Assembly (NCBI GenBank): GCA_965205855.1
Contig: OZ242184.1
Location: forward strand, 334,853 to 398,852
Direction of reading: 5' to 3'
Length of the DNA stretch: 64,000 nucleotides
Source: Thermodesulfobacteriota bacterium
GTDB taxonomy: Bacteria; Desulfobacterota_D; UBA1144; Nemesobacterales; Mycalebacteriaceae
Positions 3,971-60,046 of this stretch are shown piece after piece. Made by a program: the position numbers and the translations under genes. Below the pieces are notes generated by a model. It did not search any database, had not been told where the DNA came from, and saw only the letters and a list, made by a program, of their open reading frames with translations. The stretch's first letter is position 1. Every line of letters starts with the position of its first letter.

Positions 3971-4488
3971 GCAAACCGGTTGTAAGCGTTGTTATGGGTT
4001 CTGATTCGGACCTTGGGGTTATGAAAAAGGCGGCGGCCTTTCTTGAGGGTTTGGGAGTTCCCGTTGAGGTTACAATCGTGAGCGCTCACAGAACCCCGCA
4101 GCGGCTTTTTGATTTTGCGCAAAACGCGCACACGCGCGGGATAGATGTAATCATTGCCGGCGCGGGAGGCGCGGCGCATCTGCCCGGAATGATAGCGTCT
4201 ATTTCCCCGCTTCCGGTTATCGGCGTGCCGATTAACTCTTCAAACTCCATTGACGGTGTGGATTCGGTTCTTTCAATTCTCCAGATGCCCGCTGGTGTTC
4301 CGGTTGCGACTGTTGCCGTTGACGGCGGCGAGAATGCGGGAATTCTCGCGGCGGAGATTCTTGCGGTGAAAGCCCCCGCGCTTCGGGATAAAATTGTTGA
4401 GTTTAAAAAGGGACTTGCGGACGGCGTGAGGAAGAAGTTTGAACGGCTTGAGAAAGAGGGTTATGTGGAGTATTTGAAAGGGAAATGA
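3967..4488 (+). CDS. purE: N5-CAIR mutase
   Basis: VVMGSDSDLGVMKKAA and GAGGAAHLPGM motifs. Confidence 0.9.
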   Translation: MSKPVVSVVMGSDSDLGVMKKAAAFLEGLGVPVEVTIVSAHRTPQRLFDFAQNAHTRGIDVIIAGAGGAAHLPGMIASISPLPVIGVPINSSNSIDGVDSVLSILQMPAGVPVATVAVDGGENAGILAAEILAVKAPALRDKIVEFKKGLADGVRKKFERLEKEGYVEYLKGK

Positions 4489-5087
4489 CTTGGAAAGAGT
4501 TTGTTTATGATTTAGTAGTTCAACACTGCGAAAGGAGTGGTGAGAGAGCTTTTACCCTTCAAGAGCTTCAGAAGCAAAACAAAGACGAAATTTCCGGTTT
4601 CAGAGATAAGGCAAAAACTCCGAACGCGACAGTAAGAAGAGTCCTTCAAGAATTAAGGGACGTTGACCTTATAGCGTTTAAAAGCAAAGGGGAATATTGT
4701 TTACGAGGACAGGATTTGCCAATTCTGCAAGCCGGAGCGGAAGATGAGAGCCTTATTGAGATAATTAAAAAATCTCCCGTGGAAAAGAGAGAATATTTTT
4801 TTGAGGTATTTGTCAGAGACGCCTCTTGGAAAACAAAAGCCACAAAGGTTTTCGGTTTTGACTGTTTACTACCAAAATGCGTTAATTCATTCATCAAAGA
4901 GGACGGAACGCCTTATATTGAGGTTCATCACATTAAGTCTCTTTGCGAAGGCGGAGAGAATAATATTGGGAATTTATCTGTTGTGTGCGCGCACCATCAC
5001 AGGATGGCGCATTATGCGGATGTCCGCACACGGGAAGATATTCAAAACATATTGATTGAGAAAAACGGAAGTATCATTTCCGATTGA
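4485..5087 (+). CDS. HNH endonuclease with N-terminal winged-helix-like domain (McrA-like or restriction-associated)
   Basis: C-terminal HH..(N)..CxxHH motif (VHHIKSLCEGGENNIGNLSVVCAHHHRMAH). Low GC compared with its neighbours. The start ATG overlaps the purE stop (ATGA). Confidence 0.65.
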   Translation: MTWKEFVYDLVVQHCERSGERAFTLQELQKQNKDEISGFRDKAKTPNATVRRVLQELRDVDLIAFKSKGEYCLRGQDLPILQAGAEDESLIEIIKKSPVEKREYFFEVFVRDASWKTKATKVFGFDCLLPKCVNSFIKEDGTPYIEVHHIKSLCEGGENNIGNLSVVCAHHHRMAHYADVRTREDIQNILIEKNGSIISD

Positions 5088-5089
5088 AG

Positions 5090-5275
5090 TTACTGAAAAT
5101 TGTCAATAATTGTGGAAAGGTCTTTGATGCAATATCTTTCAATGACTTTTCCGTCCAGCCAAATCCATAGTTCCTCTCCGTCAAAATCCAGTTCGTCATA
5201 CGGTTCGTTGGTTGTTTTGAAATAGCGATAGATTGAATTCCATTGTTTTGAGATTGTGTCGTTAGTCTTGTGCAT
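5090..5275 (-). CDS. small hypothetical protein (61 aa) at the 3' end of the restriction-modification operon
   Basis: ORF only. Low-GC and same-strand, 1 nt downstream of the methyltransferase gene. Confidence 0.3.
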   Translation of the reverse strand: MHKTNDTISKQWNSIYRYFKTTNEPYDELDFDGEELWIWLDGKVIERYCIKDLSTIIDNFQ

Positions 5276-5276
5276 T

Positions 5277-6164
5277 TTAAGCCCGCCGTAAAGTTTTTCT
5301 TCTTTTTGCAGGGGTTTCTAAAAGTCTTGGCTGATTCTGCAAAGCCTCTTTTTCCATGTCGGGATATTTTTTGTCTCTGATAAATTTCTGTTTGTATTTT
5401 ATATCTATAAAGCCATTTTTCTCTATGCGTTCCAGTATCATTTTATGGTACTTCTTGTTTGTCTCACAGGACAGAAAGTTTCTCTTGAGGTTTTTTGTGA
5501 GGATTATTTCGGAACCGCTTCCGCCAAAAAGAATAAACACATTATCCTTTTCCACAGTGCAGGATTTGATAAGCATTTCAACAAGAGGCAGTGGAATCTG
5601 GCAGGAATGAAAGGTTTTGTCTTTTGAAACATTTTTTACTAAGTCAAAGTAAAACCATGAATAGGGCATTCTGCCTTTGTGTCCTTCTGCAATTCTTTGT
5701 TTTATCCTTCTGTCTTCGGGGTTTTGATATGGAACCGCCACTTGGTCTTTGTAGAAGTTATTGTCCTTCGTTTTTGTCGCGTGAAGTATTGAGCGGTGTG
5801 CTGTGGTAAAACGCTTTTTTGAATGCCCAACGTTTGTATTGTAAACCCAAGCGTAATCGTGAACTTCATAAGCTGCTTCATCAAGAAAATTAACCCGAAG
5901 ATATGAGTTTTGTTTTGGATAGTTAAGCAGAAAAAGATTTCCTTCTGGTTTTAAAACTCGCAAGCTTTCTTTTGCGAGCTCCGAATACCAGGCAATATAA
6001 GATTGCCAAGCCTTTCTGTGTTTTTCTCCTCCAGCGTAAACTATGCCGACATTGTAGTCAGGGTCTCCATAGACCATATCAAGACAGTTGTCTGGGAGTT
6101 TTTTTAAGACTTTTAGAACATCCTCATTGACAACGGAGTTTCTGTATTTGTTCGGCAATCTCAT
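5277..6164 (-). CDS. beta-class DNA methyltransferase (N6-adenine or N4-cytosine)
   Basis: Motif IV DPDY (DPPY-like) near the N-terminus, followed by motif I FGGSGS. This order is typical of beta-class amino-MTases. There is a HxxQxPxxL pre-motif. Confidence 0.8.
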   Translation of the reverse strand: MRLPNKYRNSVVNEDVLKVLKKLPDNCLDMVYGDPDYNVGIVYAGGEKHRKAWQSYIAWYSELAKESLRVLKPEGNLFLLNYPKQNSYLRVNFLDEAAYEVHDYAWVYNTNVGHSKKRFTTAHRSILHATKTKDNNFYKDQVAVPYQNPEDRRIKQRIAEGHKGRMPYSWFYFDLVKNVSKDKTFHSCQIPLPLVEMLIKSCTVEKDNVFILFGGSGSEIILTKNLKRNFLSCETNKKYHKMILERIEKNGFIDIKYKQKFIRDKKYPDMEKEALQNQPRLLETPAKRRKTLRRA

Positions 6165-6955
6165 TTATTTACCAATTTGTACTCTGCGGCTTTTAAAAGT
6201 TGTATTGAAGTCATGTCGCCTGGTTTTTTAAATGAGTAAAGATAAAGTCTCAAAACAGATTCGTTTTCAACATTGTCTCTTAACAGATAGCAACAGTTTA
6301 TTTGTTTCATCTCAAGACCTTCTTCTTTTTTTAGGTCTGAAAAATAAACAAAAGGAATATAGATTTGATAAACAGCAAAATCACCCAAAAAACCGTTTTT
6401 ACCTTCAACGACAGTTACTACTCCGTTGTGTTCAAAAGTCTGGTCTATTTCCATTTGTAAGTTTGTGGTCTTTATTTTTTGCTTGCCTACATTATAGGAG
6501 ATAGTTTTCTTGGTTCTTCTTGATTGATACACTTTCGCTTCTATATTCTCATTTCCGTAAAGGAAGTGATGAGTTATTCTCTGGTTGAATGCTACAGATA
6601 GAATGTTACTTTCGCTTGTATCATACTCATTGAGCAAACTTTTTCTGTATGTCCAGTTTTGGATATTCTTTTCGGGAATCGTTTCAAATTTGTGATAGCC
6701 ATTTTTGATGCCTTTCACAAATTGGTGCTTACCTTCGCCCAAATGTAAGATGAAGAAATCTTTTGCTTTCAGAAGTTCGGGAAGTTTTTCGGTTGAGTCA
6801 ATTTTTGTTACATCAAACGGGTTTCCAAACCCAACTTCTTTTGAAATTTCCTTTACGAGGTCATTGTGGAAAACAAAGTGTTTCTTCTGTAGACAATGTT
6901 GCAAAAGCTTCGTTTGCAACTGTTTTTTCTTACCTTCTATTTTTTCTTTAGTCAA
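6161..6955 (-). CDS. putative type II restriction endonuclease (PD-(D/E)xK candidate)
   Basis: Immediately upstream of the MTase on the same strand with a 4-nt overlap. Candidate catalytic motif EID...(15 aa)...VEGK. AT-rich codon usage. Confidence 0.45.
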   Translation of the reverse strand: MTKEKIEGKKKQLQTKLLQHCLQKKHFVFHNDLVKEISKEVGFGNPFDVTKIDSTEKLPELLKAKDFFILHLGEGKHQFVKGIKNGYHKFETIPEKNIQNWTYRKSLLNEYDTSESNILSVAFNQRITHHFLYGNENIEAKVYQSRRTKKTISYNVGKQKIKTTNLQMEIDQTFEHNGVVTVVEGKNGFLGDFAVYQIYIPFVYFSDLKKEEGLEMKQINCCYLLRDNVENESVLRLYLYSFKKPGDMTSIQLLKAAEYKLVNK

Positions 6956-7030
6956 AGATGTATCTCTCTGGCGTGTTCTTCAATATTAGAAGACCCGTTG
7001 ACTCAAATAATGTCTTATTCTACCTTACCC

Positions 7031-7495
7031 TCACAACCGTGCGTCAAACTCAAACGGCAGTTTTTTTACCTTCTTAACCACCTGTTCAAAACCCGTATGC
7101 TGCGGGTTCAGTATATAAATCCATTCTCCTGACACAACCGCGCTTGGCACGGCAAGGGCGAGGGTTTTCTTTTTCCAGAGCCAAAAGTCGCCGATTATTG
7201 CGGTTTCTTGCGGCGACGGGTTGGCTCGCCAGTTACTTGGCAGTTGTTTTTGTTTCAAATACAACACATCTTTTTCCGGTATTTGCAATTCAAACAAACA
7301 GTATCTGTCCATTTTGATATTCCTTCTCTGATGCACAAACACTTCAAGAATCGCCAGAGACTCCGAACCGGCTGTATAGACGCACGTTGTTCCTATGCTG
7401 CTCCACCTTCCGCCAAATTCTTCAGTTCCTTCACCGCTGAACGCAACGGTTGAATACTCGTCTTTGACAAGCCGGTAAATGTTGAAAACTTTCAA
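7031..7495 (-). CDS. RES-domain toxin (ParT/MbcT-like NAD-targeting toxin)
   Basis: GGRWSSIGTTCVYTAGSESLAILEVFVH matches the RES-domain signature (R...E...S). About 150 aa, 4-nt overlap with the upstream antitoxin. Confidence 0.8.
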   Translation of the reverse strand: MKVFNIYRLVKDEYSTVAFSGEGTEEFGGRWSSIGTTCVYTAGSESLAILEVFVHQRRNIKMDRYCLFELQIPEKDVLYLKQKQLPSNWRANPSPQETAIIGDFWLWKKKTLALAVPSAVVSGEWIYILNPQHTGFEQVVKKVKKLPFEFDARL

Positions 7496-7851
7496 ACAAA
7501 AATCCCGTGCTCAAGACACCCTATCAAATTCAGAATCTGGTCGCTCTCAACCGATGTTCCGAGCAAATCAACGGGCTTTTTGTATCCGAGACCGCGAACG
7601 GGATGAGTTAGCCAATCCATTGCCGCCTCTTTGTCGCCCGCGAAAAGCCCCGTTGCCGCTTCCAGAACTTTGACAAACCTGTATAGACGGTCGCTCTCGT
7701 TTTTGTTGAACCTTCCAGCCTTTGCCCGCCGCTGAAGTGTGGCGGGAGAAATTAACGTTATTCTCGCAAGCTCTTTTTTATCAAGCCCGGAAATGGCGGA
7801 GAGTTTGTTGTAAATCTGATAGGAAAACCCTTCATTCAACGCCTCATGCAA
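7492..7851 (-). CDS. Xre-like antitoxin with DUF2384 domain (ParS/MbcA-like)
   Basis: About 120 aa with HTH-like TLISPATLQRR and a C-terminal DUF2384-like region (DWLTHPVRGLGYKKPVDLL), the canonical partner of RES toxins. Confidence 0.75.
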   Translation of the reverse strand: MHEALNEGFSYQIYNKLSAISGLDKKELARITLISPATLQRRAKAGRFNKNESDRLYRFVKVLEAATGLFAGDKEAAMDWLTHPVRGLGYKKPVDLLGTSVESDQILNLIGCLEHGIFV

Positions 7852-13273: not shown

Positions 13274-14089
13274 TTAATCAACCTCCGACTTTGATTTCCG
13301 TCTCCACATTCTGTAAAGGAAAGCCGCAAGAATCAGAAGTGTAACAACACCAGAGATTTTTACTATTGCAATTGCGCGCAGAGCGTATTTCCGGCCGACG
13401 GGGTCAAATTTATAACAGAAAAGAAGAACTTTGTTAATTATCTCACTGCCACCTATGCGGCCGTTTGACGCTTCAATGAGGGCGAGTTTCAGGTCCACTG
13501 GCTCGTGCTGTATCCCGTAAAGATAACGTGCAATCCTGCCTCGCGGGGTCAGCGCTATAAGCGCGGACTGATGGTCAAAGCCGTCTCCCTCTTTTCTGAA
13601 CCCGAAACCCGCCGCTTCGGTCAGTCTTTCAATTTCTTCCGGACTTGCGGTAAAAAACCTCAACTCCCCGGCTCCCTCTTTGTGCGTGAGCAGGGAGCGA
13701 CTTTCCCGCGTTTTTTCCAAAGCCGTCTCCGTGGTGTCGGACTCATCAAAACTTACCGTCAACACCCGGTAGTCACTACCGATTTTGAAAGATTCAAAAT
13801 TGTCCGACAGGGCGTTTACGGTTTCTGTGAGAAACTTCATCGCAAAACGGCAGTTGTGTGGGCATTTGTAAAAAACAAGTTGAAGAAGAACGGGCTTTTT
13901 GCCGTCAAAGTACCGCCCGATAAGTTCCTCCCGTCCCAGGTGATTTACAAGCGCAATGTTCGCAGGCACCTGTTCGCCAAGTTTTTCTTCTATGCCAATC
14001 CTCTCAAGCTGAGCCGTGTCGGTTATGGAATTTGCGGTCGTAGTCATCAACAAAACTGCGACAAACAGAAATATTTTTCCCATGTGCAT
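13274..14089 (-). CDS. SCO1/SenC-family copper chaperone (thioredoxin-like)
   Basis: CPHNC (CxxxC) motif, N-terminal signal peptide or TM and a C-terminal TM. Start moved to an internal Met. Confidence 0.55.
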   Translation of the reverse strand: MHMGKIFLFVAVLLMTTTANSITDTAQLERIGIEEKLGEQVPANIALVNHLGREELIGRYFDGKKPVLLQLVFYKCPHNCRFAMKFLTETVNALSDNFESFKIGSDYRVLTVSFDESDTTETALEKTRESRSLLTHKEGAGELRFFTASPEEIERLTEAAGFGFRKEGDGFDHQSALIALTPRGRIARYLYGIQHEPVDLKLALIEASNGRIGGSEIINKVLLFCYKFDPVGRKYALRAIAIVKISGVVTLLILAAFLYRMWRRKSKSEVD

Positions 14090-14217
14090 AGAAAATCCTT
14101 TACGGATACGCGGAAAACTTATACGCAGGGTTGAAACTGTCAAGAACCTCCGGAAAAGGAGCCTCAACGCGCCGCCGGATGCGTTTGAGAATCCCGCGTG
14201 CCTTTTCTCACCGTTTA

Positions 14218-15671: not shown

Positions 15672-16175
15672 ATGAGAAAATCATTTCTGGTTGTGTTTTC
15701 ATTTTCAAGACAGTTCCAACTTATAAGAATACTGATCTTTCTCACTTCCTTTCTGCTGGTTGTTTCCTCATTTGTCGCACCCATACGTCAATCAATCGGC
15801 AGATTTCCCAGCGGTGAATCCATTTACCTGTGGCTGTCTTTCATATGTCATCAGTTGCCCTCCCGGTCATTTTGGGTTTCGGGGTTTCCCTGCGGGCTTT
15901 GCTCAAGGTGTCTTTTGGGATATACGGGCGTGGCTCTTGCCGCTTTGTTTGTTTGCCGTCCGCAAAGGTATTCAAGTCGTGTCCTGCTTGGCGTTTTTTT
16001 ATTGCTTCCGGCCATTCTGGATGTGTCCATTCAGAGTGTGACCGGTTACCAAGGCATGAACCTGACAAGAGCAGTTACGGGTTTTCTCGGCGGAATTGGC
16101 TTTTTCATACTCTGCTTTCCGTCAAGATTTGAAAAATCTTTAGTTCACAGGAGGACTACAAATGAAATTAATTAA
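15672..16175 (+). CDS. DUF2085-family integral membrane protein
   Basis: CHQLPSRSF...CSRCLLGY motif and 4-5 TM segments. Confidence 0.5.
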   Translation: MRKSFLVVFSFSRQFQLIRILIFLTSFLLVVSSFVAPIRQSIGRFPSGESIYLWLSFICHQLPSRSFWVSGFPCGLCSRCLLGYTGVALAALFVCRPQRYSSRVLLGVFLLLPAILDVSIQSVTGYQGMNLTRAVTGFLGGIGFFILCFPSRFEKSLVHRRTTNEIN

Positions 16176-16683
16176 ACGTTCAGGTTTTTGTATTGCAATA
16201 GCAGTATTGGTTTTTTCCGTTTCCGGCACAACAAATGCCTTTGCCCGTGAAGTTGTTTTGAGGGAATCTGTTCTTGTGCCCGTTCAAACAAAACAACGTA
16301 TTTCTTCACAACATATGCGAGTCGGCGAACAAGTTATTCTTTTCGTTGAACGGGACATCAAAGTTGACGGTATAACTGTCATTGAGAGTGGTACTGCCGT
16401 TTCTGCTACGGTGTCGGACAGAAAAAAGGCGAGCATGGCCGGAATTTCCGGACATCTCACAATTACCGTGGATCACACAACCGCTGTTGACGGAACTCTT
16501 ATTGTTCTGAAGGGCAGTTTTAATACGAAAGGAGATTCTGAAATAGGAGGGACTGTTGCTGCTGGCGTCATTTTATGTCCGTTGGCTTTCTTAAACAAGG
16601 GGAAAGAAGGGGTTATTCCCGCCGGAGCGGTAATCAGGACTTTAACCCTGTCCGACAGAAAGATTAAAGTCTCGGATAAATAA
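16162..16683 (+). CDS. secreted hypothetical protein with signal peptide
   Basis: N-terminal signal peptide ending NAFA, beta-rich and Gly/Thr/Val-rich. Overlaps the upstream gene by 14 nt. Confidence 0.4.
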   Translation: MKLIKRSGFCIAIAVLVFSVSGTTNAFAREVVLRESVLVPVQTKQRISSQHMRVGEQVILFVERDIKVDGITVIESGTAVSATVSDRKKASMAGISGHLTITVDHTTAVDGTLIVLKGSFNTKGDSEIGGTVAAGVILCPLAFLNKGKEGVIPAGAVIRTLTLSDRKIKVSDK

Positions 16684-21266: not shown

Positions 21267-21683
21267 TCAGGAGGTTCCGGTTTGTCCCCGGAGGTCGAGA
21301 AGATAGAACTTTGCGCCGCTGTTTTCGTAGAATTTTTCAAGTGACATTCCCACATACTCTATCCTCTGCAACTCATTGCCTTCATAACGGGCTTTTTTAA
21401 CCTCATCCGATATTGTCGCTTTAACCTCAATCTGTTTGTCCGGAACCTGCTGGCAGATAAAGCCCAGTGTAAGCGCCGTTTCCTTGAAATCCGCGGACAC
21501 TATAAAACCGACCGAAAAAGTCGCGTTGGCAAGCTCAATGACGATAATGATAACGGGAGGGGTTGAGCCAGAAGGGTTTTCCGCCACGAACTTATAGCCG
21601 TAAACCTGAATATCGTTCACAGAACCCATTATTGAATTAAGGTTCCAATAGTCTTCGTTTTCAATCATACAAATTGTGAGCAT
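21267..21683 (-). CDS. hypothetical protein (138 aa)
   Basis: ORF with good coding appearance and tight spacing with argG; no recognisable motif. Confidence 0.35.
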   Translation of the reverse strand: MLTICMIENEDYWNLNSIMGSVNDIQVYGYKFVAENPSGSTPPVIIIVIELANATFSVGFIVSADFKETALTLGFICQQVPDKQIEVKATISDEVKKARYEGNELQRIEYVGMSLEKFYENSGAKFYLLDLRGQTGTS

Positions 21684-39615: not shown

Positions 39616-42171
39616 ATGCAGGACTATTCGCGATTTCTCAGCCGTTGTTCAAGTTGGGAGCAGTTTTCGGATTACACAGGCTCCCTGAAAACCGCGAAAG
39701 AGAAGGGCGACCTTTTTGAAAAACTGGTTTGGACATATCTGACAGTCCATCCCGAATACAGGACAAAGCTTTCCAATGTTTGGTTGCTCCGCGATGTTCC
39801 GCAGGCGGTTACCCGCAAGCTCAATCTTCCGTCTGCCGACGAGGGTATAGACCTGATTGCGCAAGCTCGCGGCGGCGGGTTCTGGGCGATACAGGCAAAA
39901 TACAGGTCTGACAAAGACAAAGCGCTGAACACCCGCGACCTTGCGAAGTTTTTGCACCTTTCTTTTACCCATTGTAACGGCATAACCCACGGCGTTATTG
40001 CGCACACGACTTCAAAGCCCGTACGGAAAAAAAATTTGCTTGGTAATGTGGTTGAAATCGGTCTTTCGCGCTGGCAGGAACTCTCGCCCGAAGGGTGGGA
40101 CGCAATCCGCGCGAAGGTGGCGAACAAGGTTCACAATCTCGTGCCGCGCAAACCGAGGAGACATCAGAAGGCGGCAATCGCCAACATACGCAAGCATTAC
40201 GCGGAAGAAAAAAAGCCGAGGGGCAGGATGATTATGCCTTGCGCGTCCGGAAAAAGTCTCACGGCGTTCTGGGCAGCGCAAGCCCTTAAAGCGAAGACGG
40301 TTGTTCTTGCCGTGCCGAGTCTTTTGCTCGTAAAGCAAAGCGTCAAAGACTGGACTCGCGAGTATCTCGCCCATAATGAGACACCGGACTGGCTTTGTGT
40401 TTGCAGCGATGAGACTGTTGGCAAGATAGAGGACAGTTTTGTTTCAAACATATACGAAACGGGGCTTCCGACCACAACGGACGCAAAAGAGATAGCAGAC
40501 TTTCTGAGAAAACGCTCATCTGTGCCGAGGGTGATTTTTACAACCTACCAAAGCAGTCCCCGGCTTGCGGAGGCGGCGCGCAAGTCCGGGCGCGAGATAG
40601 ACCTCTGCATACTGGACGAAGCGCACAAGACAGTCGGGGAAAAAGATTCCGCTTTTGCGACCTTGCTTGACAACAGGAAACTGAAAATCAAAAGGCGGCT
40701 TTTTATGACTGCCACAGAAAGGGTTCTTCACGGAAAAAACGATGAAGTTCTGTCAATGGATGACGAGCGGACTTACGGCGGGTGTTTTTATCAACTCACA
40801 TTCAGGCAAGCGATTGAGGACGGCATTATATGCGATTATAAGATTCTGACTCTTACGATTTTGGACGCGCAGGTACGCGAGATTGTTGAGAGAAACAGAC
40901 TTGTGAAAGACAGATTGCTTGCTCAGCAGACCCGTGAGTCCGCGCCGCTTGCCGCGGGAATTGCGCTCGGCAAGGTGTTCAACGAACACTGCATTAAACA
41001 CGCGGTTTCATTTCACAAAAGCATAAAATCCGCTACCGATTTCAAATCCCAGCAGGAAGACCTTTCAAAGTCTCGCGTTATCAAAACAAAGATTGAGAAC
41101 TTTCATATTTCAAGCAATCTGTCCGCCGGAGAGCGAACGGTTGTGATGCGCGATTTTGAGCAATCCCAAAGGTCTCTTATAACAAACGCCAGATGTTTGA
41201 CCGAAGGGGTTGATGTTCCCGCGATTGATTGTGTTCTTTTTGCAGATCCCAAGCACAGCGTTATTGACATTGTTCAAGCGGCGGGAAGGGCGATGCGTCC
41301 GAAAGAGGGAAAAGAGAGGGGCTACATACTCCTGCCGATTGTTGTGCCGGACGGGATGAGTGTTGAGGAATTTGCGGAAACAACCCCGTTCAAAAAGGTT
41401 GCAAGTCAGATTACCGCGCTGTCCACTCAGGACGAGAGAGTCAAGGAAGAGTTCAGGGCGATTACCGAAGGGAAAAGGCCAAGCGCGCAAGGGCGGCTTT
41501 TTTCAATCAGCGGCGATGTTCCCGCCGGAATGAATATCAGTCTCAAACAGTTTTCCGATGCGATTGAAAGCAAAATTTGGGAAAAGGTTGCCAAAGTTAA
41601 TTGGAGGGTTTTTAAAGAAGCGCGGGATTATGCGCAGTCGTTGAGACTAAAAAGTGCAACGGAATGGCGCGAACACACAAAGTCATCCGATTTTCCGTCA
41701 GATATTCCTGTTGATCCCAACCGAACATACAAAGACAAAGGATGGGTTAATTGGGGAGATTGGCTTGGGACTGGAAATATAGCTAATTTTCTCAAAGAGT
41801 ACCGTTCTTTTAAAGAAGCGCGGGATTATGCGCAGTCGTTGCAACTAAGAAGTAGAACGGAATGGCGCGAACACACAAAGTCATCCGATTTTCCGTCAGG
41901 TATTCCTGTTGATCCCTACCGAACATACAAAGACAAAGGATGGGTTAATTGGGGAGATTGGCTTGGGACTGGAAATATAGCTAATTTTCTCAAAGAGTAC
42001 CGTTCTTTTAAAGAAGCGCGGGATTATGCGCAGTCGTTGAGACTAAAAAGTGCAACGGAATGGCGCGAACACACAAAGTCATCCGATTCTCCGTCAGATA
42101 TTCCTGTTGCTCCCGACCAAATATACAAAGACAAAGGATGGGTTAATTGGGGAGATTGGCTTGGAAAATAA
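39616..42171 (+). CDS. Mrr-like restriction-endonuclease-fold / SF2 DEAH helicase fusion protein with three C-terminal tandem repeats
   Basis: Mrr_cat-like N-terminus (FEKLVWTYL...DEGIDLIA...QAKY). Walker A CASGKS, DEAH (ILDEAH), motif III TAT and motif VI QAAGRAMR. Three 66-aa repeats FKEARDYAQSL...KDKGWVNWGDWLG at the C-terminus. The start is 4 nt after the gyrB stop. Confidence 0.7.
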   Translation: MQDYSRFLSRCSSWEQFSDYTGSLKTAKEKGDLFEKLVWTYLTVHPEYRTKLSNVWLLRDVPQAVTRKLNLPSADEGIDLIAQARGGGFWAIQAKYRSDKDKALNTRDLAKFLHLSFTHCNGITHGVIAHTTSKPVRKKNLLGNVVEIGLSRWQELSPEGWDAIRAKVANKVHNLVPRKPRRHQKAAIANIRKHYAEEKKPRGRMIMPCASGKSLTAFWAAQALKAKTVVLAVPSLLLVKQSVKDWTREYLAHNETPDWLCVCSDETVGKIEDSFVSNIYETGLPTTTDAKEIADFLRKRSSVPRVIFTTYQSSPRLAEAARKSGREIDLCILDEAHKTVGEKDSAFATLLDNRKLKIKRRLFMTATERVLHGKNDEVLSMDDERTYGGCFYQLTFRQAIEDGIICDYKILTLTILDAQVREIVERNRLVKDRLLAQQTRESAPLAAGIALGKVFNEHCIKHAVSFHKSIKSATDFKSQQEDLSKSRVIKTKIENFHISSNLSAGERTVVMRDFEQSQRSLITNARCLTEGVDVPAIDCVLFADPKHSVIDIVQAAGRAMRPKEGKERGYILLPIVVPDGMSVEEFAETTPFKKVASQITALSTQDERVKEEFRAITEGKRPSAQGRLFSISGDVPAGMNISLKQFSDAIESKIWEKVAKVNWRVFKEARDYAQSLRLKSATEWREHTKSSDFPSDIPVDPNRTYKDKGWVNWGDWLGTGNIANFLKEYRSFKEARDYAQSLQLRSRTEWREHTKSSDFPSGIPVDPYRTYKDKGWVNWGDWLGTGNIANFLKEYRSFKEARDYAQSLRLKSATEWREHTKSSDSPSDIPVAPDQIYKDKGWVNWGDWLGK
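41611..42171 (+). repeat. three tandem 198-bp direct repeats (last copy truncated) at about 96% nucleotide identity, inside the CDS
   Basis: Copies start at 41611, 41809 and 42007. Only about 7 mismatches between copies 1 and 2. Confidence 0.9.
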
Positions 42172-49186: not shown

Positions 49187-50064
49187 AAAAAAACGCTCTT
49201 GGTAAAGGGTTGGAATCCCTTATCGGGGATGAAATCGATGTTCCCCGCGGACATCTTTCCCTGCCGGTCGGCAGGCTGATTCCCGGCGCGGGGCAGCCGA
49301 GGAAAAACTTCAACGAAAAGTCGATAGAGGAACTTGCGGACTCAATCAGGGAGAAGGGGCTTATTCAGCCGCTGATTGTGAGAAAGCACGGGGAGAAATA
49401 CGAGATAATCGCCGGAGAGAGGAGATGGAGAGCGGCGCAGCGCGCCGGGCTTCGTGAGGTTCCCGTGATTGTCCGCGAAATGGCGGACGGCGACGCGTTT
49501 GAAATCGCCCTTATTGAGAACATACAGCGCAAGGATTTGAATCCCGTTGAGGAAGCGCTTGCTTATGAAAAACTTATATCCGAGTTTGATCTGACACACG
49601 AGGAGGTTTCCAAGCGTGTTGGTAAAAGCCGGGTGGCAATTACAAACCAGTTGCGTCTTTTGAGGCTTCCGGACGCCGCGCGCGTCGCATTGATAAACGG
49701 GGATCTGTCAACCGGGCACGCGAGAGCGATACTCGGTTTAAAACCCGGCGCGGATGGGGCGCGTGTTGCTCTGAAAGTGGTGCGCGGGGATATGTCCGTC
49801 AGGCAGACGGAAAGTCTTGTCAAAAGAATCAACTCTTCGCAATCTTCCGACCAAAAAGTTTCACAGACGGACGACATATCCATCAAACGCGCCGAGTGGA
49901 CAATGCGCGATAGGCTGGGGACAAAAGTCATGATAGAGGGGGGCTTGAAGAAAGGCAGGATAGTCATCAAGTATTCTTCGGCGGAGGAGCTTGAAAGGCT
50001 ATCTTTTGAGATAGGCAGCGGTTTGCACACGGCGGGTGGTTCCGCAAAGAAGGTTTTTGAATGA
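49183..50064 (+). CDS. parB: chromosome partitioning protein ParB/Spo0J
   Basis: ParB box GERRWRAA and an HTH. Overlaps parA by 4 nt. Confidence 0.85.
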   Translation: MKKNALGKGLESLIGDEIDVPRGHLSLPVGRLIPGAGQPRKNFNEKSIEELADSIREKGLIQPLIVRKHGEKYEIIAGERRWRAAQRAGLREVPVIVREMADGDAFEIALIENIQRKDLNPVEEALAYEKLISEFDLTHEEVSKRVGKSRVAITNQLRLLRLPDAARVALINGDLSTGHARAILGLKPGADGARVALKVVRGDMSVRQTESLVKRINSSQSSDQKVSQTDDISIKRAEWTMRDRLGTKVMIEGGLKKGRIVIKYSSAEELERLSFEIGSGLHTAGGSAKKVFE

Positions 50065-50336
50065 AAACCTTTGAAGTGAAAATTGAAATTCGTCCTGCAA
50101 AGGGCGTGCTTGATCCTCAGGGCAAGGCGATTCTTTCCGCACTTGGAAATTTGGGGTTCGGAGGGGTTTTGTCTGTCACATCGGGAAAACTCATAGAGTT
50201 GACGGTGGAGTCTCAGGACAAAAGCGCCGCGGAGAAAAATGTCCGCGCGATGTGCTCCGCAATTCTTGCAAATCCGGTCATAGAGGTTTTTTCAATAGAT
50301 GTGAAACCGGCGGAGGCGAAAACCGGCGGTGGTTGA
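50061..50336 (+). CDS. purS: FGAM synthase PurS subunit
   Basis: MKTFEVKIEIRPAKGVLDPQGKAI. Confidence 0.8.
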   Translation: MKTFEVKIEIRPAKGVLDPQGKAILSALGNLGFGGVLSVTSGKLIELTVESQDKSAAEKNVRAMCSAILANPVIEVFSIDVKPAEAKTGGG

Positions 50337-51024
50337 GTTCGGAGTGGTTGTTTTTCCGGGTTCAAACTGTGATGCGGACTGCGAAAAAGCCGTTAAAAGG
50401 CTTGGTTACGGTGGCGTCCGCATCTGGCATGAGGAAACCTCCCTTCGCGGAATTGACTGCATTATAATTCCGGGAGGTTTTTCATACGGCGATTACTTGA
50501 GAACCGGCGTTATGGCTTCCGTTTCACCCGTGATGGAAAGCGTAAAAAAATTCGCGCGCGAAGGAAAACCCGTAATCGGAATATGCAACGGGTTTCAAAT
50601 CCTTGTCGAAAGCGGACTTTTACCGGGAGCGTTTACAAGAAACGCGTCCCTGAAGTTCGTCTGCAAATGGACATACGTGCGCGTTGAAAATACCGACACG
50701 CCTTTTACGGCGGCTTTTAAGCTCGGTGATGTTCTGCAAACTCCCGTTGCGAACGGTGAGGGGGCTTTCTTCTGCTCCGAAGACGAACTCGGAGAGATTG
50801 AGCGTAAGAAACAAGTTGTTTTCAGGTATTGCTCGGAAAGCGGCGAAGCGGCTCCCGGAGCCAATCCCAACGGCTCGGTTTCGGACATTGCCGGAGTTTG
50901 CGGAGGCGGCGGAAATATAATCGGAATGATGCCCCATCCCGAAAGATGTTGCAATGAGATTTTAGGTGGAACAGACGGGGCCGGGATTTTTGAGTCGGTT
51001 GCGGAGTTTGTCTCACGCGGGTGA
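50329..51024 (+). CDS. purQ: FGAM synthase glutaminase subunit
   Basis: Class I GATase with Cys in GICNGFQ. GTG start overlapping the purS stop. Confidence 0.85.
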   Translation: MVEFGVVVFPGSNCDADCEKAVKRLGYGGVRIWHEETSLRGIDCIIIPGGFSYGDYLRTGVMASVSPVMESVKKFAREGKPVIGICNGFQILVESGLLPGAFTRNASLKFVCKWTYVRVENTDTPFTAAFKLGDVLQTPVANGEGAFFCSEDELGEIERKKQVVFRYCSESGEAAPGANPNGSVSDIAGVCGGGGNIIGMMPHPERCCNEILGGTDGAGIFESVAEFVSRG

Positions 51025-51394
51025 GGTGTTTTTGCAGAAGATTATTTTGTTCCGGGAATTTCTATTTTTAAGTATGCGTTCAATAATACTGGATTTTATA
51101 AGTGGCAGACCCTAGTACGCAAGAGCAAACTGTCTGTAGTTTCCTCTATCTTCTCCATGATTTTTTATGATAACTCTAGGTTGCGCTATGTAAGTAACTT
51201 ACTCCCTATGTGATATCTCCTTCTTTATATTGTTTTCCACAGTTTAGTTAGACAGTATAGAATGCTACTTGAGCCCTCACAATGGGTTCCCCGGTTTCTG
51301 AAAACTTGTACAAACTCTTATGAGTTGACACCGCCGAATAGCGAATCGTACCTTATCCCGTCCGCTCCGGCCGTCTTTTACGATTGCTTCTTTT

Positions 51395-51661
51395 GTGTTA
51401 TCTTCCAAAAAGCGGAGACTGTTTGAGATGCCTGAAAAAGCCGACCAGTTTATAGACATTACCGATGAGGTGTGTCCGATGACTTCAATAAAAACAAAAC
51501 TGAAATTGAAAAAGATGGAACCGGGCGGGGTGCTTGAGGTGCTTGTCAGAGAAGGGGAGCCGGTTGAAAACCTTCCCCGGACACTTGAGCGCGAGGGACA
51601 CAGAATTCTTGAGGTAAGGAAAGAAGACAATTTCTATACAGTCAGGATAAAGCGCGGCTGA
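51395..51661 (+). CDS. TusA-like sulfurtransferase
   Basis: CPMT (CPxP-type) motif at the N-terminus of a roughly 80-aa protein. Confidence 0.6.
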   Translation: MLSSKKRRLFEMPEKADQFIDITDEVCPMTSIKTKLKLKKMEPGGVLEVLVREGEPVENLPRTLEREGHRILEVRKEDNFYTVRIKRG

Positions 51662-52602
51662 TGCGTGAATCCGCGGGTATGGAGAGATCTCTCGACAAAT
51701 TTGTCCTGCGGTCAATAGTTGATTTTATTGGCAACACGCCGCTTATCAATCTCGGCAAAGTTGCGAAGGACATTCCGGACGGCGTTGAGATTTACGCAAA
51801 AGCCGAATGGTTCAATCCCGGAGGCTCGGTTAAAGACCGCGCCGCTTTCAAGATGGTTTCCCATGCCGTCAAGTCGGGCGATTTGAAGAAGGGGCGAACA
51901 ATAATGGATTCGTCATCTGGAAACACCGCCATAGCATACGCCATGATAGGCTCCACTCTGGAATTTCCGGTAACGATTGTCGCGCCGGAGAATATCAATC
52001 TGGAGCGGAAAAAAACCATTGAAGCATTCGGGGCGGAAATAGTTTATTCAGACCCTATAGAAGGCTCTGACGGGGCGATAATACTCGCGCAGAAAATCAA
52101 ACGAGAGTCTCCCGAAAAATATTTTATGCCCGACCAATACAACAACCCGCTCAATCCGCTTGCCCATTATGAGACCACCGCCCCGGAGATATGGGAGCAG
52201 ACAAACGGGCGTGTTACTCACTTTATAACCGGCGTGGGAACAAGCGGGACCATTATGGGGGTTTCGCGTAGACTCAGAGAACTCAATCCCGAAGTTAAGA
52301 CCTTTGCGGTAGAGCCGGTCGAGGTTCTTCACGGACTTGAGGGTCTCAAACATATGAAGACTTCAATAGTGCCGGGAATATATGACCCAACAGGATTTGA
52401 CGGCACTTTGTTTGTTTCCACTGAAGACGCTTATGGAATGATGGAATTGGTTATGCGAACCGAGGGGTTGTTCATAGGACACTCTGGCGGCGCGGCGATT
52501 TACGCGGCGGTGCAAACCGCGAGCTCTCTTGAAACGGGCGTTATCGTAACCGTGCTTCCAGACAGTGGATTCAGGTACTTAAGCGAGAGGCTGTGGTGGT
52601 AG
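51661..52602 (+). CDS. cysteine synthase (CysM/CysK family, PLP-dependent)
   Basis: PLP-binding Lys (SVKDR) and a GNTAIAYA-type motif, flanked by sulfur-carrier-system genes. Confidence 0.8.
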   Translation: MRESAGMERSLDKFVLRSIVDFIGNTPLINLGKVAKDIPDGVEIYAKAEWFNPGGSVKDRAAFKMVSHAVKSGDLKKGRTIMDSSSGNTAIAYAMIGSTLEFPVTIVAPENINLERKKTIEAFGAEIVYSDPIEGSDGAIILAQKIKRESPEKYFMPDQYNNPLNPLAHYETTAPEIWEQTNGRVTHFITGVGTSGTIMGVSRRLRELNPEVKTFAVEPVEVLHGLEGLKHMKTSIVPGIYDPTGFDGTLFVSTEDAYGMMELVMRTEGLFIGHSGGAAIYAAVQTASSLETGVIVTVLPDSGFRYLSERLWW

Positions 52603-53006
52603 AAATTTCAAAAGAGGCCTTTGAAAATATGAAGCTGTATGCCGAACGCGGCTATCCGGACGAAGTATGCGGCGTGATGACGGGCACGGACGGGATGATA
52701 AGAGAATCTGTGCCATGCCGTAATCTCAATACCGAACGGGCGTATGACAGATACGAGCTTGACCCGCTGTCTTTTAATGAAGCCGATACCGCCGCGCGGA
52801 AAAAAAACCTTGCCATAGTCGGCATATATCACTCCCATCCCGACCATCCGGCGCGTCCTTCGGAAACGGACAGAGTAAAAGCGTGGCCCGGCTGGGGATA
52901 TCTGATAATGTCAATTGAAAAAGGAGCGTTTAAGACCGCAACGCTCTGGTATTTGAATGAAAAAACCGGACAATTTAAAAAGAGCGATTTCTCGGTCGGC
53001 GATTAG
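52593..53006 (+). CDS. JAMM/MPN+ metalloprotease (Mec+-like)
   Basis: JAMM motif E...HSHPDHPARPSETD. Overlaps the cysteine synthase by 10 nt. Confidence 0.7.
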   Translation: MVVEISKEAFENMKLYAERGYPDEVCGVMTGTDGMIRESVPCRNLNTERAYDRYELDPLSFNEADTAARKKNLAIVGIYHSHPDHPARPSETDRVKAWPGWGYLIMSIEKGAFKTATLWYLNEKTGQFKKSDFSVGD

Positions 53007-53123
53007 GGAGATTTTGCCTGTCCGGCGGGATTTTCACCTTTCTTTCCGTTGTTGGCTTTTGTTAGAATAAGATGGGGTTTTTGCCCTTATTAATCAAAAA
53101 AACAGAGGTGAGGTAAAGTTACA

Positions 53124-54155
53124 GTGAGAAGGTTTTTTACATTTTTCGTGCTGATAATAGCCGCGGGGGCGGCTTGTTTTTTGTTTTTTCAACCCGTTTC
53201 AGTAACGGAAAAAACAGTCACGGCACCCGTGGCGAAGACCGAGCCGGAGACTTTTATTTTTACATACACAATCAACGGCGGGGATTCTTTGAGCCTGATA
53301 GCGCGGAGGTTTGGTATAAGCGCTGAAACAATCCTCAACGCCAACATCATAAAAGACAGTGTCATATACAAAGATGACACTCTGGGCATACCGCTTGAGC
53401 TTTCCAGGCTTGTATCTTTGCACACCGTTGCCAAAGGTGAAAACCTTTCGTCAATAGCGAGAGATTACGGAACAACCGTGAAAAACATAATGAAACTCAA
53501 CCGTATGAACAAAGACACGATTTTGGAGTCCGACAAAATTCTTGTTCATGCAAGCGCCGAGCCTAACTCAAGATTTGTTGTGTTCACGGTCGGACACGGC
53601 GACACTGTGGCGGAAATCCTGCGCGCTTTCGGTATCAGAAAGGAGGAGATTGAAAGACTCAACGCCTCCAATCCGGACTGGCATGAACCGGGTTCTTTTA
53701 TTGCCGTGGATACCTTTGACTATTCCTACGCGGAACAAACGCGCGAAAGAATCCTGCAAACCGCCGAAGCGTATCTGGGCTCTCCCTACAAATACGGCGG
53801 AAATTCAACGGAAACCGGAATAGACTGCTCTGCTTATGTCAAAAAGGTTTTTTCCTTTTTTGGTGTTAATCTTCCCAGAACGGTCAGGACGATGCACAAG
53901 TATGCCGAAGGACGGTGGGTGCGTAAAGACCGTCTTGAAAAAGGAGATTTGGTTTTCTTTGAGACCGACAGACCTTTTCCGTCTCACATAGGGATATACA
54001 TGGAGAAGGGCAATTTTATACACGCTTCATCCGTGCGCGGAAGGGTGGTTGTATCAAATCTTGGCGAGCCTTACTATACAAAAACCTATATCGGGGCAAA
54101 AAGAATCTATCTGCGAGACTCCTTCGCTTCGGCGGATACGCAAAAGGCTCAATAA
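53124..54155 (+). CDS. LysM-repeat NlpC/P60 peptidoglycan endopeptidase
   Basis: Three LysM repeats and a C-terminal NlpC/P60 domain (Cys in GIDCSAYV, His in SHIGIY). Confidence 0.8.
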   Translation: MRRFFTFFVLIIAAGAACFLFFQPVSVTEKTVTAPVAKTEPETFIFTYTINGGDSLSLIARRFGISAETILNANIIKDSVIYKDDTLGIPLELSRLVSLHTVAKGENLSSIARDYGTTVKNIMKLNRMNKDTILESDKILVHASAEPNSRFVVFTVGHGDTVAEILRAFGIRKEEIERLNASNPDWHEPGSFIAVDTFDYSYAEQTRERILQTAEAYLGSPYKYGGNSTETGIDCSAYVKKVFSFFGVNLPRTVRTMHKYAEGRWVRKDRLEKGDLVFFETDRPFPSHIGIYMEKGNFIHASSVRGRVVVSNLGEPYYTKTYIGAKRIYLRDSFASADTQKAQ

Positions 54156-59117: not shown

Positions 59118-60046
59118 GCAAAAATTTTCTGAGCGTTTTTGATCTTTCCGCGGGCGATATAACGAGTATAATCGCGCGCTCTTTTGAACACAGGGAAATG
59201 CGCGAGCTGAAAGCTGTGGGAAAATCTCTTGAAGGAAAAACGGTGGGGATTGTTTTTGAGAAGCCATCCACCCGAACAAGGGTTTCATTTGAAGCGGCGG
59301 CGTCTCTTCTCGGAGCGCATCCAGTCTTTATAGATTCCGGAAGCACTCAGATAAACCGTGGCGAAACCCTTGAAGACACAGCAAGGGTTCTTTCCTCCTA
59401 CCTTGATATTATCGTTATGAGAACTCATGAACATGAGAGGATAGAGAGGTTCGCGGCTAGTTCCTCGGTCCCCGTTATCAACGCGCTTACCGACCTTGAG
59501 CATCCCACTCAGGCGCTTGCGGATATCTTCACGATAGTGACTCACGACATTGATATGGAGAGTTTCAAACTCGCCTACATAGGAGATGGCAACAATGTGG
59601 CGAATTCCCTGATTGGAATTTCGTCCATACTCGGTTTTGACATAAGCATCGCGGCCCCGAAAGGGCACGAGCCAGACGAAGGAGTTCTCAAAAAAAGTGG
59701 AAAAAGCAACGGCAGGGCGGCTCATATAAACATTACCGACGATCCTCGCAAAGCAGTTGAAGACGCCGATGTTATCTACACCGATGTGTGGGTCAGCATG
59801 GGGCAGGAAGAAAACGGGGAGGATACCCGAAAGGGTTTTGAACCTTATCAGGTGAATTCGGAACTGTTGTCCCATGCTCCCGAAGATGCGGTTGTAATGC
59901 ACTGCCTTCCCGCCCACAGGGGGGAGGAGATTACGGCGGAAATTATGGACGACGGGAAAAGATTTATCGCTTTTGAACAGGCGGAGAACAAACTCCATAC
60001 GGCAAAAGCTGTGCTTGAGTTCTTTCTCGGATGGAAAGGGGATTAG
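59114..60046 (+). CDS. argF: ornithine carbamoyltransferase
   Basis: STRTRVSFE and HCLP motifs. Start set at MSKNF to overlap the argD stop by 4 nt. Confidence 0.85.
   Translation: MSKNFLSVFDLSAGDITSIIARSFEHREMRELKAVGKSLEGKTVGIVFEKPSTRTRVSFEAAASLLGAHPVFIDSGSTQINRGETLEDTARVLSSYLDIIVMRTHEHERIERFAASSSVPVINALTDLEHPTQALADIFTIVTHDIDMESFKLAYIGDGNNVANSLIGISSILGFDISIAAPKGHEPDEGVLKKSGKSNGRAAHINITDDPRKAVEDADVIYTDVWVSMGQEENGEDTRKGFEPYQVNSELLSHAPEDAVVMHCLPAHRGEEITAEIMDDGKRFIAFEQAENKLHTAKAVLEFFLGWKGD

Follow-up and report, generated by a model that had tools for sequence, protein, structure and literature searches.

Organization of the locus

We analyzed a stretch of 64,000 nucleotides from a Thermodesulfobacteriota bacterium (contig OZ242184.1, positions 334,853 to 398,852), hereafter called the window, with respect to three neighbouring genes encoding a small TusA-like sulfurtransferase, a CysM-like cysteine synthase and a JAMM/MPN+ metalloprotease. 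A preliminary description made from the sequence alone had considered this cluster a variant of cysteine synthesis with a sulfur-carrier protein. All scans of the window refer to these 64 kb of the 1,401,274-bp source contig. The nearest relatives are annotated as metagenome-assembled genomes (MAGs) of Candidatus Dadabacteria or Thermodesulfobacteriota.

The three open reading frames (ORFs) are co-directional on the plus strand and span 51428-53006, or 51395-53006 if the alternative GTG start of tusA at 51395 is used. The first gene, tusA (51428..51661, +), encodes a TusA/SirA-family protein of 77 amino acids (PF01206). Translation almost certainly begins at the ATG at 51428, since the 77-residue form is identical to the source-annotated protein P0001 and ten of ten close homologues agree. 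It is followed by a cysM-like gene (51661..52602, +) for a pyridoxal phosphate (PLP)-dependent sulfhydrylase of 313 amino acids, which belongs to the PALP family and to a JAMM-linked clade. The ATG of cysM overlaps the stop codon of tusA (TGATG), by which the two genes are translationally coupled. The third gene (52593..53006, +) encodes a Mec+-like JAMM/MPN+ zinc metalloprotease of 137 amino acids (PF14464, Prok-JAB). As had been described, it overlaps the 3' end of cysM by 10 nt if the GTG at 52593 is the start codon, and by 7 nt if translation begins at the following GTG. The source annotation places the JAMM start 36 nt later, at the ATG at 52629 (125 amino acids), and the N-terminal residues upstream of this ATG are conserved among homologues.

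A consensus scan indicated the possible boundaries of the transcription unit. Upstream, a weak terminator-like hairpin with a T-run lies 3' of purQ (51009..51028, +) and a weak sigma-70-like promoter candidate with 9 of 12 hexamer matches in the purQ-tusA intergenic region (51234..51263, +). Downstream, the same scan placed a terminator-like hairpin directly 3' of the JAMM gene (53007..53035, +). The purQ-tusA intergenic region (51025-51427) comprises 400 nt in the window versus about 60 nt in the related loci L001-L003 and L165-L167. An Rfam scan of 50800-53300 matched no family, and hence no riboswitch or leader RNA upstream of tusA.

Sequence features of the three proteins

The synthase matches the PALP family with an E-value of 2.2e-66, and its Schiff-base lysine in the motif GGSVKDR aligns with K51 of Mycobacterium tuberculosis CysM and K41 of Escherichia coli CysM. 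Its top NCBIfam match is cysM TIGR01138, where the score of 339.8 bits stays under the cut-off of 394.2; it is also under the cut-off of TIGR01136 and reaches 279.6 versus 413 bits for NF008735. The E. coli loop R210-R211-W212 is not retained but corresponds to L-K-H-M in the window enzyme, with a lysine at the position of E. coli R210 and M. tuberculosis R220. Moreover, the long C-terminal tail of M. tuberculosis CysM is missing. The signature HGLEGLKH, which is part of the loop HGLEGLKHM.TSIVPGIYD, is common to the window CysM and CysO-linked CysM proteins. Accordingly, identity is 51-53% to CysO-adjacent CysM proteins and 37-40% to those of M. tuberculosis and E. coli (37% to M. tuberculosis). 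Among solved structures, E. coli CysM gave the best match (1.7e-64), and M. tuberculosis CysM matched with 1.7e-51.

We calculated a neighbour-joining tree, which carries no support values, from 71 CysM-like sequences of the surveyed loci together with CysM of E. coli and M. tuberculosis, both verified against PDB entries 2BHS and 3DWG. The window CysM is nested among CysM proteins linked to JAMM, CysO and E1, inside a superclade characterized by TusA and short E1 proteins. This superclade is sister to the clades with CysO and E1-rhodanese proteins, and both reference enzymes fall outside. Thus, in these sequence comparisons the window synthase does not group with ordinary sulfhydrylases. A test set beforehand in the preliminary description, namely whether the enzyme groups with ordinary O-acetylserine sulfhydrylases, was decided by the tree and the HGLEGLKH loop in favour of the CysO-linked synthases.

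The JAMM protein of the window matches PF14464 with an E-value of 1.1e-21. Its metal-site residues E24, H80, H82, S90 and D93 (E..HxH..S..D) are invariant across 29 homologues. The nearest solved structure is 2KCQ (E=7e-24), which we take to be a protein of Salinibacter ruber, whereas PfJAMM1 (5LDA) matched with 2e-8.

The assignment of the small neighbour to the TusA family holds, as PF01206 is matched over profile positions 2-70 of 70 with an E-value of 5.9e-21 and 74.5 bits versus a gathering cut-off of 28.6. However, the motif is CPMT and not CPxP as initially described. Cys16 of this motif is the candidate persulfide-carrying residue. Cys16-Pro17 is invariant in 19 subfamily members, while the second proline of CPxP is replaced by threonine or asparagine; G57 and H58 are likewise invariant throughout the subfamily. 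Its members share the motifs CP[MIT][TN]FVKTKLKLE, GEP and EGH, and judged by these the window TusA belongs to a distinct subfamily with CP[MIT][TN] rather than CPxP. The nearest solved structure is TM0983 (PDB 1JDQ). The YedF model NF008242 is scored with 38.1 bits, below its cut-off of 79, and the YeeE-YeeD fusion of the PDB is a poor match (E=0.004). The C-termini vary among homologues (RG, CG, RR, CR, RV), which rules out TusA as a carrier with a C-terminal thiocarboxylate.

TusA and rhodanese domains in related operons

A survey anchored on JAMM genes in species-representative genomes yielded 80 loci, with counts taken over 79; domains were assigned with local hidden Markov models (HMMs) and samples were checked with Pfam. 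A CysM-like gene was located at most 6 kb from JAMM in 64 of the 79 loci. As stated in the preliminary description, the CysM-JAMM pairing is the signature of a protein-thiocarboxylate route to cysteine.

The same count bears on an explanation in which the window synthase is an ordinary sulfhydrylase using sulfide or thiosulfate, TusA handles thiosulfate or sulfane sulfur like YeeD/TsuB or DsrE3-TusA, and JAMM has an unrelated or regulatory role. YeeD and DsrE3/TusA proteins are known to handle thiosulfate. The best structural match to E. coli CysM and the basic lysine at the position of R210 or R220 would agree with such a function, as would the DsrE-like genes which flank many TusA loci as well as the version of the cluster found in anammox bacteria (see below). 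However, besides the frequent linkage of CysM to JAMM, the scores under the TIGR01138 and TIGR01136 cut-offs, the clade-specific loop LKHM, common to CysO-linked enzymes, in place of RRW of E. coli CysM and the low YedF score of TusA (38 bits, cut-off 79) argue against it. Pfam scans of otherwise unidentified window ORFs revealed nothing sulfur-related except thioredoxin reductase, the only sulfur-assimilation gene recognized among the ORFs of the window. In addition, the conserved overlap of cysM with an intact JAMM would be left unexplained. We regard an ordinary sulfhydrylase as unlikely.

The E1 proteins of the JAMM-anchored loci are of two kinds. E1-rhodanese proteins occur in 31 loci and comprise 388-415 amino acids as annotated, or more if fused to an N-terminal ThiS. 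A CysO-like carrier is adjacent or fused in 30 of these 31 loci, and TusA is found in none. E1 proteins without a detectable rhodanese domain occur in 14 loci, and 13 of them comprise 265-287 amino acids with a ThiF domain only. Here, TusA is encoded within 6 kb in 10 of 14 loci versus 0 of 31 for the E1-rhodanese type (Fisher p=3e-7, kinship ignored). Two of the four rhodanese-less E1 loci lacking TusA have DsrE/F/H-like relay genes instead. In L020, L023 and L054 the gene order is TusA-CysO-NIL-CysM-JAMM-E1, with CysO ending in ..AIAGG with or without two extra residues and an E1 of 273-287 amino acids that consists of ThiF only. A single operon can therefore contain both TusA and CysO. CysM-JAMM pairs without linked carrier, E1 or TusA were present in several loci of Chloroflexi, Dormiibacterota and Planctomycetota.

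A second survey was anchored on TusA and collected 80 metagenomic loci by the motif CP[MIT][TN][FSY][VI]K[TA]K; counts refer to the 33 of these in which TusA is flanked by 4 kb or more on either side. At a distance of up to 5 kb from TusA we found JAMM in 31/33 loci, a ThiF-type E1 in 28/33 and a CysO-like or HcyS-like carrier with a Gly-Gly (GG) end in 25/33, but a rhodanese domain in 0/33. Most of the carriers are ThiS-like proteins ending in ..FMGGG plus 1-4 residues, and a typical locus reads ThiS-like-E1-JAMM-small sulfite reductase-TusA, in some cases with a MetY-type enzyme behind it. Exceptions without E1 and carrier are L085, L094 and L096, which are of the window type, and L133, which is of the anammox type. 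TusA most likely acts as a persulfide donor replacing the rhodanese domain of the E1, as this distribution suggests. The earlier proposal that TusA substitutes for CysO as carrier, or as donor to CysM, did not hold up: the subfamily shares operons with CysO and rhodanese-less E1 proteins, is almost always linked to an E1 and a GG carrier and never to E1-rhodanese fusions, and its C-terminus is not conserved.

Several carriers in the surveyed loci have unusual architectures. In CysM-JAMM-E1 operons, a CysO-like ThiS is fused to a NIL domain (PF09383), or directly followed by one, in L017 (3326-3856), L047 (3020-3535), L055 (5477-5992) and L061 (3622-4152), with further ThiS/NIL cases in L020 (4415-4651), L023 (3423-3659) and L054 (1920-2156). 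Otherwise, NIL domains are familiar as parts of MetN transporters and of NIL-ferredoxin proteins of homocysteine synthesis. A ThiS-NIL fusion would require cleavage by JAMM after the GG. Carriers with a cysteine-rich extension behind the GG were observed in Acidobacteriota/Terriglobia MAGs (L040, 8497-8856; L053, 8567-8866; L057, 3014-3313; L060, 8494-8853), for example ..IAGGSVTCCICS and ..IAGGCARRCICR, and such extensions would need to be removed ahead of carrier activation. Besides, single fusions of ThiS, rhodanese and ThiF with about 480-520 amino acids are encoded beside JAMM and CysM in L014, L016, L021, L022, L035, L044 and L048, in the order ThiS-rhodanese-ThiF in L014 (8405-9856).

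Conservation of the triad and origin of the E1-less form

The tusA-cysM-JAMM triad recurs in more than 25 loci. It has the same order in L001-L003 and L168, within a parAB-purSQ ... LysM/NlpC-xerC-hslVU context. In L004 it lies between genes for a pentapeptide-repeat protein and an S8 peptidase, that is, between unrelated flanks. The number of loci, the unrelated context of L004 and the occurrence in anammox Planctomycetota indicate that the triad is no chance adjacency. Within the E1-less clade, each of the three genes shows a ratio of nonsynonymous to synonymous substitution rates (dN/dS) of 0.07-0.20 at a dS of about 1-2.3; tusA, cysM and JAMM are thus under purifying selection.

In a sister lineage (L165-L167) the arrangement is recA-cinA-pgpA / parAB-purSQ-tusA-cysM-JAMM-ThiF, and the upstream synteny is as in the window. 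The ThiF gene of this lineage encodes 266-269 amino acids and starts 15-25 nt 3' of JAMM, and its JAMM proteins are 58-63% identical to that of the window. In the window clade, a LysM/NlpC-P60 gene follows JAMM instead of ThiF, which implies that the E1 gene left the position behind JAMM in the window lineage. The neighbour-joining tree groups the window clade with L010-L013, and the loss of E1 may have been a single event within Dadabacteria.

The missing E1 could also mean that the triad is a decaying remnant which became non-functional after loss of E1 and carrier. The E1 is indeed missing from its ancestral position. However, dN/dS stays at 0.07-0.20 with a dS of about 1-2.3, all catalytic residues are intact, and several species-level lineages as well as a second genomic setting retain the arrangement. 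We consider this explanation extremely improbable.

Loss of linkage is not restricted to the E1. In L005-L009 and L012 the order is TusA-CysM-JAMM-E1 with no carrier within 8 kb, and Dadabacteria-type loci in general, including those keeping the E1, show no carrier within 8-10 kb. As an E1 requires a carrier, the carrier is evidently unlinked in this group, and the missing linkage in the window is therefore no evidence of absence. Of the options raised in the preliminary description, a carrier encoded elsewhere is the one favoured by these data, although for the window genome it would have to exist at a site outside the 64 kb.

Anammox Planctomycetota represent a second carrier-less occurrence, outside Dadabacteria. 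Their order is DsrE-CysM-JAMM-TusA with neither E1 nor carrier within 8 kb; the DsrE-like protein has 139 amino acids (L027, L028, L031, L033, L034, L059, L067, L133, L158), and the genomic loci carry the labels Brocadia, Jettenia or Scalindua.

Such loci raise the question of whether the TusA persulfide could be the direct sulfur donor to CysM, replacing the CysO thiocarboxylate so that neither GG carrier nor E1 is needed. In the window-type and anammox groups, purifying selection maintains the triad alone, without a linked E1 or carrier; TGATG couples the translation of tusA and cysM; and deletion has removed the dedicated E1 from its ancestral site behind JAMM. All of this would fit such a donor role. 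The chemistry, however, would not: attack of a persulfide on the aminoacrylate would yield a TusA-S-S-Cys mixed disulfide, which a zinc metalloprotease cannot resolve, and the varying C-terminus of TusA cannot be the site of a thiocarboxylate. Neither the invariant JAMM motif nor the overlap of JAMM with cysM would be explained. Moreover, TusA proteins of this subfamily stand beside CysO and E1 in related operons and are linked to an E1 in 28/33 and to a carrier in 25/33 loci, and loci keeping the E1 also lack a linked carrier, as would be expected if carriers are simply unlinked in the group. A direct transfer from TusA to CysM appears quite unlikely. Very unlikely, too, is the stronger form of this idea, by which in lineages with only TusA, CysM and JAMM, namely the window-type and anammox groups, the whole genome lacks a ThiS/MoaD carrier and an E1 and the CysM-JAMM pair uses a sulfur donor without the beta-grasp fold. 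If this were true, the donor could be TusA or another protein with a flexible glycine tail, and JAMM would have a new kind of substrate.

Proposed pathway

We consider it fairly probable that the triad is the core of a CysO/CysM/Mec+-type protein-thiocarboxylate pathway of cysteine synthesis, in the version with a rhodanese-less E1, and that carrier and E1 are encoded elsewhere. The data directly show which genes are present, that their catalytic motifs are intact and under purifying selection, and how the genes are arranged and co-occur in related loci, whereas we infer every chemical step of this pathway as well as the presence of carrier and E1 elsewhere in the genome. Cys16 of TusA would carry a persulfide, and TusA would pass this sulfur to a ThiS/MoaD-like GG carrier bound as acyl-adenylate on a ThiF-type E1, a transfer for which MoeZ-type E1 proteins of other systems have their own fused rhodanese domain. 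The resulting carrier thiocarboxylate is predicted to attack the PLP-aminoacrylate in CysM, and after an S-to-N acyl shift JAMM would hydrolyse the carrier-cysteine adduct to release free cysteine. JAMM probably also trims any residues after the GG of the carrier. In the window lineage the carrier gene would be unlinked, as in all Dadabacteria-type loci examined, and the E1 gene that stands behind JAMM in the sister lineage would have been removed from the operon. The window operon is accordingly a reduced CysM-type form which has lost its linkage to E1 and carrier.

A similar role for TusA has been proposed before. Iyer, Burroughs and Aravind (2006; PMC1779556) described JAB/E1/ThiS-MoaD operons of sulfur assimilation in which the E1 is always rhodanese-less and SirA (=TusA) always present, and predicted that SirA plays the role of the rhodanese. 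Our literature search retrieved no described TusA-CysM-JAMM system, only this general SirA prediction.

Several points weigh against the thiocarboxylate pathway proposed here. We scanned the window with local HMMs built from related loci for CysO-like and HcyS-like carriers, ThiF-type E1 proteins and E1-fused rhodanese domains. No CysO-like or HcyS-like match was obtained in the 64 kb, and GG-tail scans found no small ORF ending in GG except PurS, so that no ThiS/MoaD-like carrier was recognized. Neither HMM nor motif searches detected a ThiF/MoeZ-type E1 in the window, and a rhodanese domain was likewise absent from it; the preliminary description had correctly reported that a GG carrier and a MoeZ-like E1 are missing nearby. 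The flanks of window-type loci (±8-10 kb) contain no carrier and no E1 either. A profile search with the operon-type E1 gave no hit on window-clade contigs among its best 120 matches, all of which were at least 62% identical; this negative result is uninformative, because even the E1 proteins of the sister clade reach just 60-63% identity to the query. Furthermore, the E1-less triad in the window-type and anammox groups also fits an E1-independent role. Loading of TusA by a desulfurase with sulfur from cysteine would make the pathway circular, and an inorganic sulfur source must be assumed. Finally, we know of no biochemical evidence for any member of this TusA subfamily.

PurS is encoded two genes 5' of tusA (50061-50336, +) and has a 10-residue tail beyond PF02700 which ends in ...KPAEAKTGGG. 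The PurS proteins of L001-L003 have similar tails (..EKGGG, ..ENGGG), while PurS lacks the GGG tail in L085, L094, L096, L011 and L013, which are also without a linked E1. We rejected PurS as a cryptic GG carrier, as it is a normal PF02700 protein and has no tail in these E1-less loci. The glycine-tailed PurS beside a carrier-less JAMM operon is probably a coincidence.

Other features of the window

A low-GC island (0.41-0.43) at 4485-7851 lies between purE and a UbiA-family gene. It encodes an HNH/DpnI-like protein, an N6/N4 DNA methylase, a DUF6996/DUF6997 protein and a RES-Xre toxin-antitoxin pair, and is probably a mobile restriction-modification/toxin-antitoxin insertion. Directly 3' of gyrB, at 39616-42171 (+), a gene for 851 amino acids encodes an Mrr-type restriction endonuclease domain together with a ResIII/DEAD helicase and looks like a defence gene. 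Pfam (E<=0.001) gave no match for putative ORFs of 137-296 amino acids at 13274-14167 (-), 16162-16683 (+), 21267-21683 (-) and 59285-59998 (-).

Comparison with known systems and implications

Most of what is known of protein-thiocarboxylate cysteine synthesis comes from M. tuberculosis, in which the pathway is a drug target. The CysO/CysM/Mec+/MoeZ route of this organism is O-phosphoserine-dependent. As in the window, a PLP sulfhydrylase of the CysM family adjoins a JAMM/MPN+ protein whose metal site is intact, at least some components (MoeZ in M. tuberculosis) have their genes away from the operon, and the proposed chemistry is identical. In contrast, the window CysM is only 37% identical, belongs to another clade, lacks the long C-terminal tail and has a lysine for Arg220. 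No cysO is adjacent in the window, and the E1 proteins of its relatives lack the rhodanese domain of MoeZ, with a tusA gene present instead.

With E. coli TusA the window protein shares its small size, the PF01206 domain and an N-terminal Cys-Pro persulfide site. The IscS-TusA relay of E. coli serves tRNA thiolation. Dahl et al. are said to have found in 2013 that E. coli TusA influences molybdopterin synthesis by MoaD and MoeB, and that MoeB has no rhodanese domain. Unlike E. coli TusA, the window subfamily with its motifs CP[MIT][TN]FVKTKLKLE, GEP and EGH is dedicated to JAMM/E1 modules and not to TusBCDE/MnmA.

Among operon types, the locus also resembles type 4e of Iyer et al. (2006), the SirA-containing JAB/E1/ThiS-MoaD operons, to which the HcyS/HcyD/HcyF/MetY methionine system of Wolinella succinogenes belongs. 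TusA (SirA) is of the same subfamily, and our TusA survey recovered just such loci, with the order ThiS-like (..FMGGG plus extension)-E1 (short)-JAMM-small sulfite reductase-TusA-MetY. The type 4e rule, by which the E1 is rhodanese-less and SirA is present, holds in the relatives of the window (10/14 vs 0/31), while the window itself has TusA and no E1. However, its sulfhydrylase is of the CysM type (fold type II PALP) and not an O-acetylhomoserine sulfhydrylase, and the locus has no sulfite reductase, sulfate-assimilation genes, carrier or E1. Type 4c of the same authors (ThiS/MoaD, E1-rhodanese, JAB and cysteine synthase; Salinibacter, Chloroflexus, Solibacter) shares the CysM-JAMM core but obtains its sulfur via the rhodanese fused to the E1 and has no TusA (0/31).

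On present evidence, the three genes represent a TusA-type version, in reduced form, of a known protein-thiocarboxylate pathway to cysteine and no new kind of system. This has consequences for annotation: the label of an ordinary O-acetylserine sulfhydrylase is inappropriate for a CysM encoded beside a JAMM, a missing linked carrier does not imply a new pathway, and the motif CP[MIT][TN][FSY][VI]K[TA]K provides a signature by which the TusA subfamily can be annotated. To our knowledge, there is no biochemical test of the SirA prediction of 2006. With the loci described here, this prediction for methionine-type operons would be extended to cysteine synthases. A large and phylogenetically broad set of CysM-JAMM operons in Dadabacteria, Thermodesulfobacteriota and anammox bacteria, to which loci of the related methionine-type operon from gut and rumen metagenomes also belong, would then use a dedicated TusA subfamily instead of a rhodanese fused to the E1.

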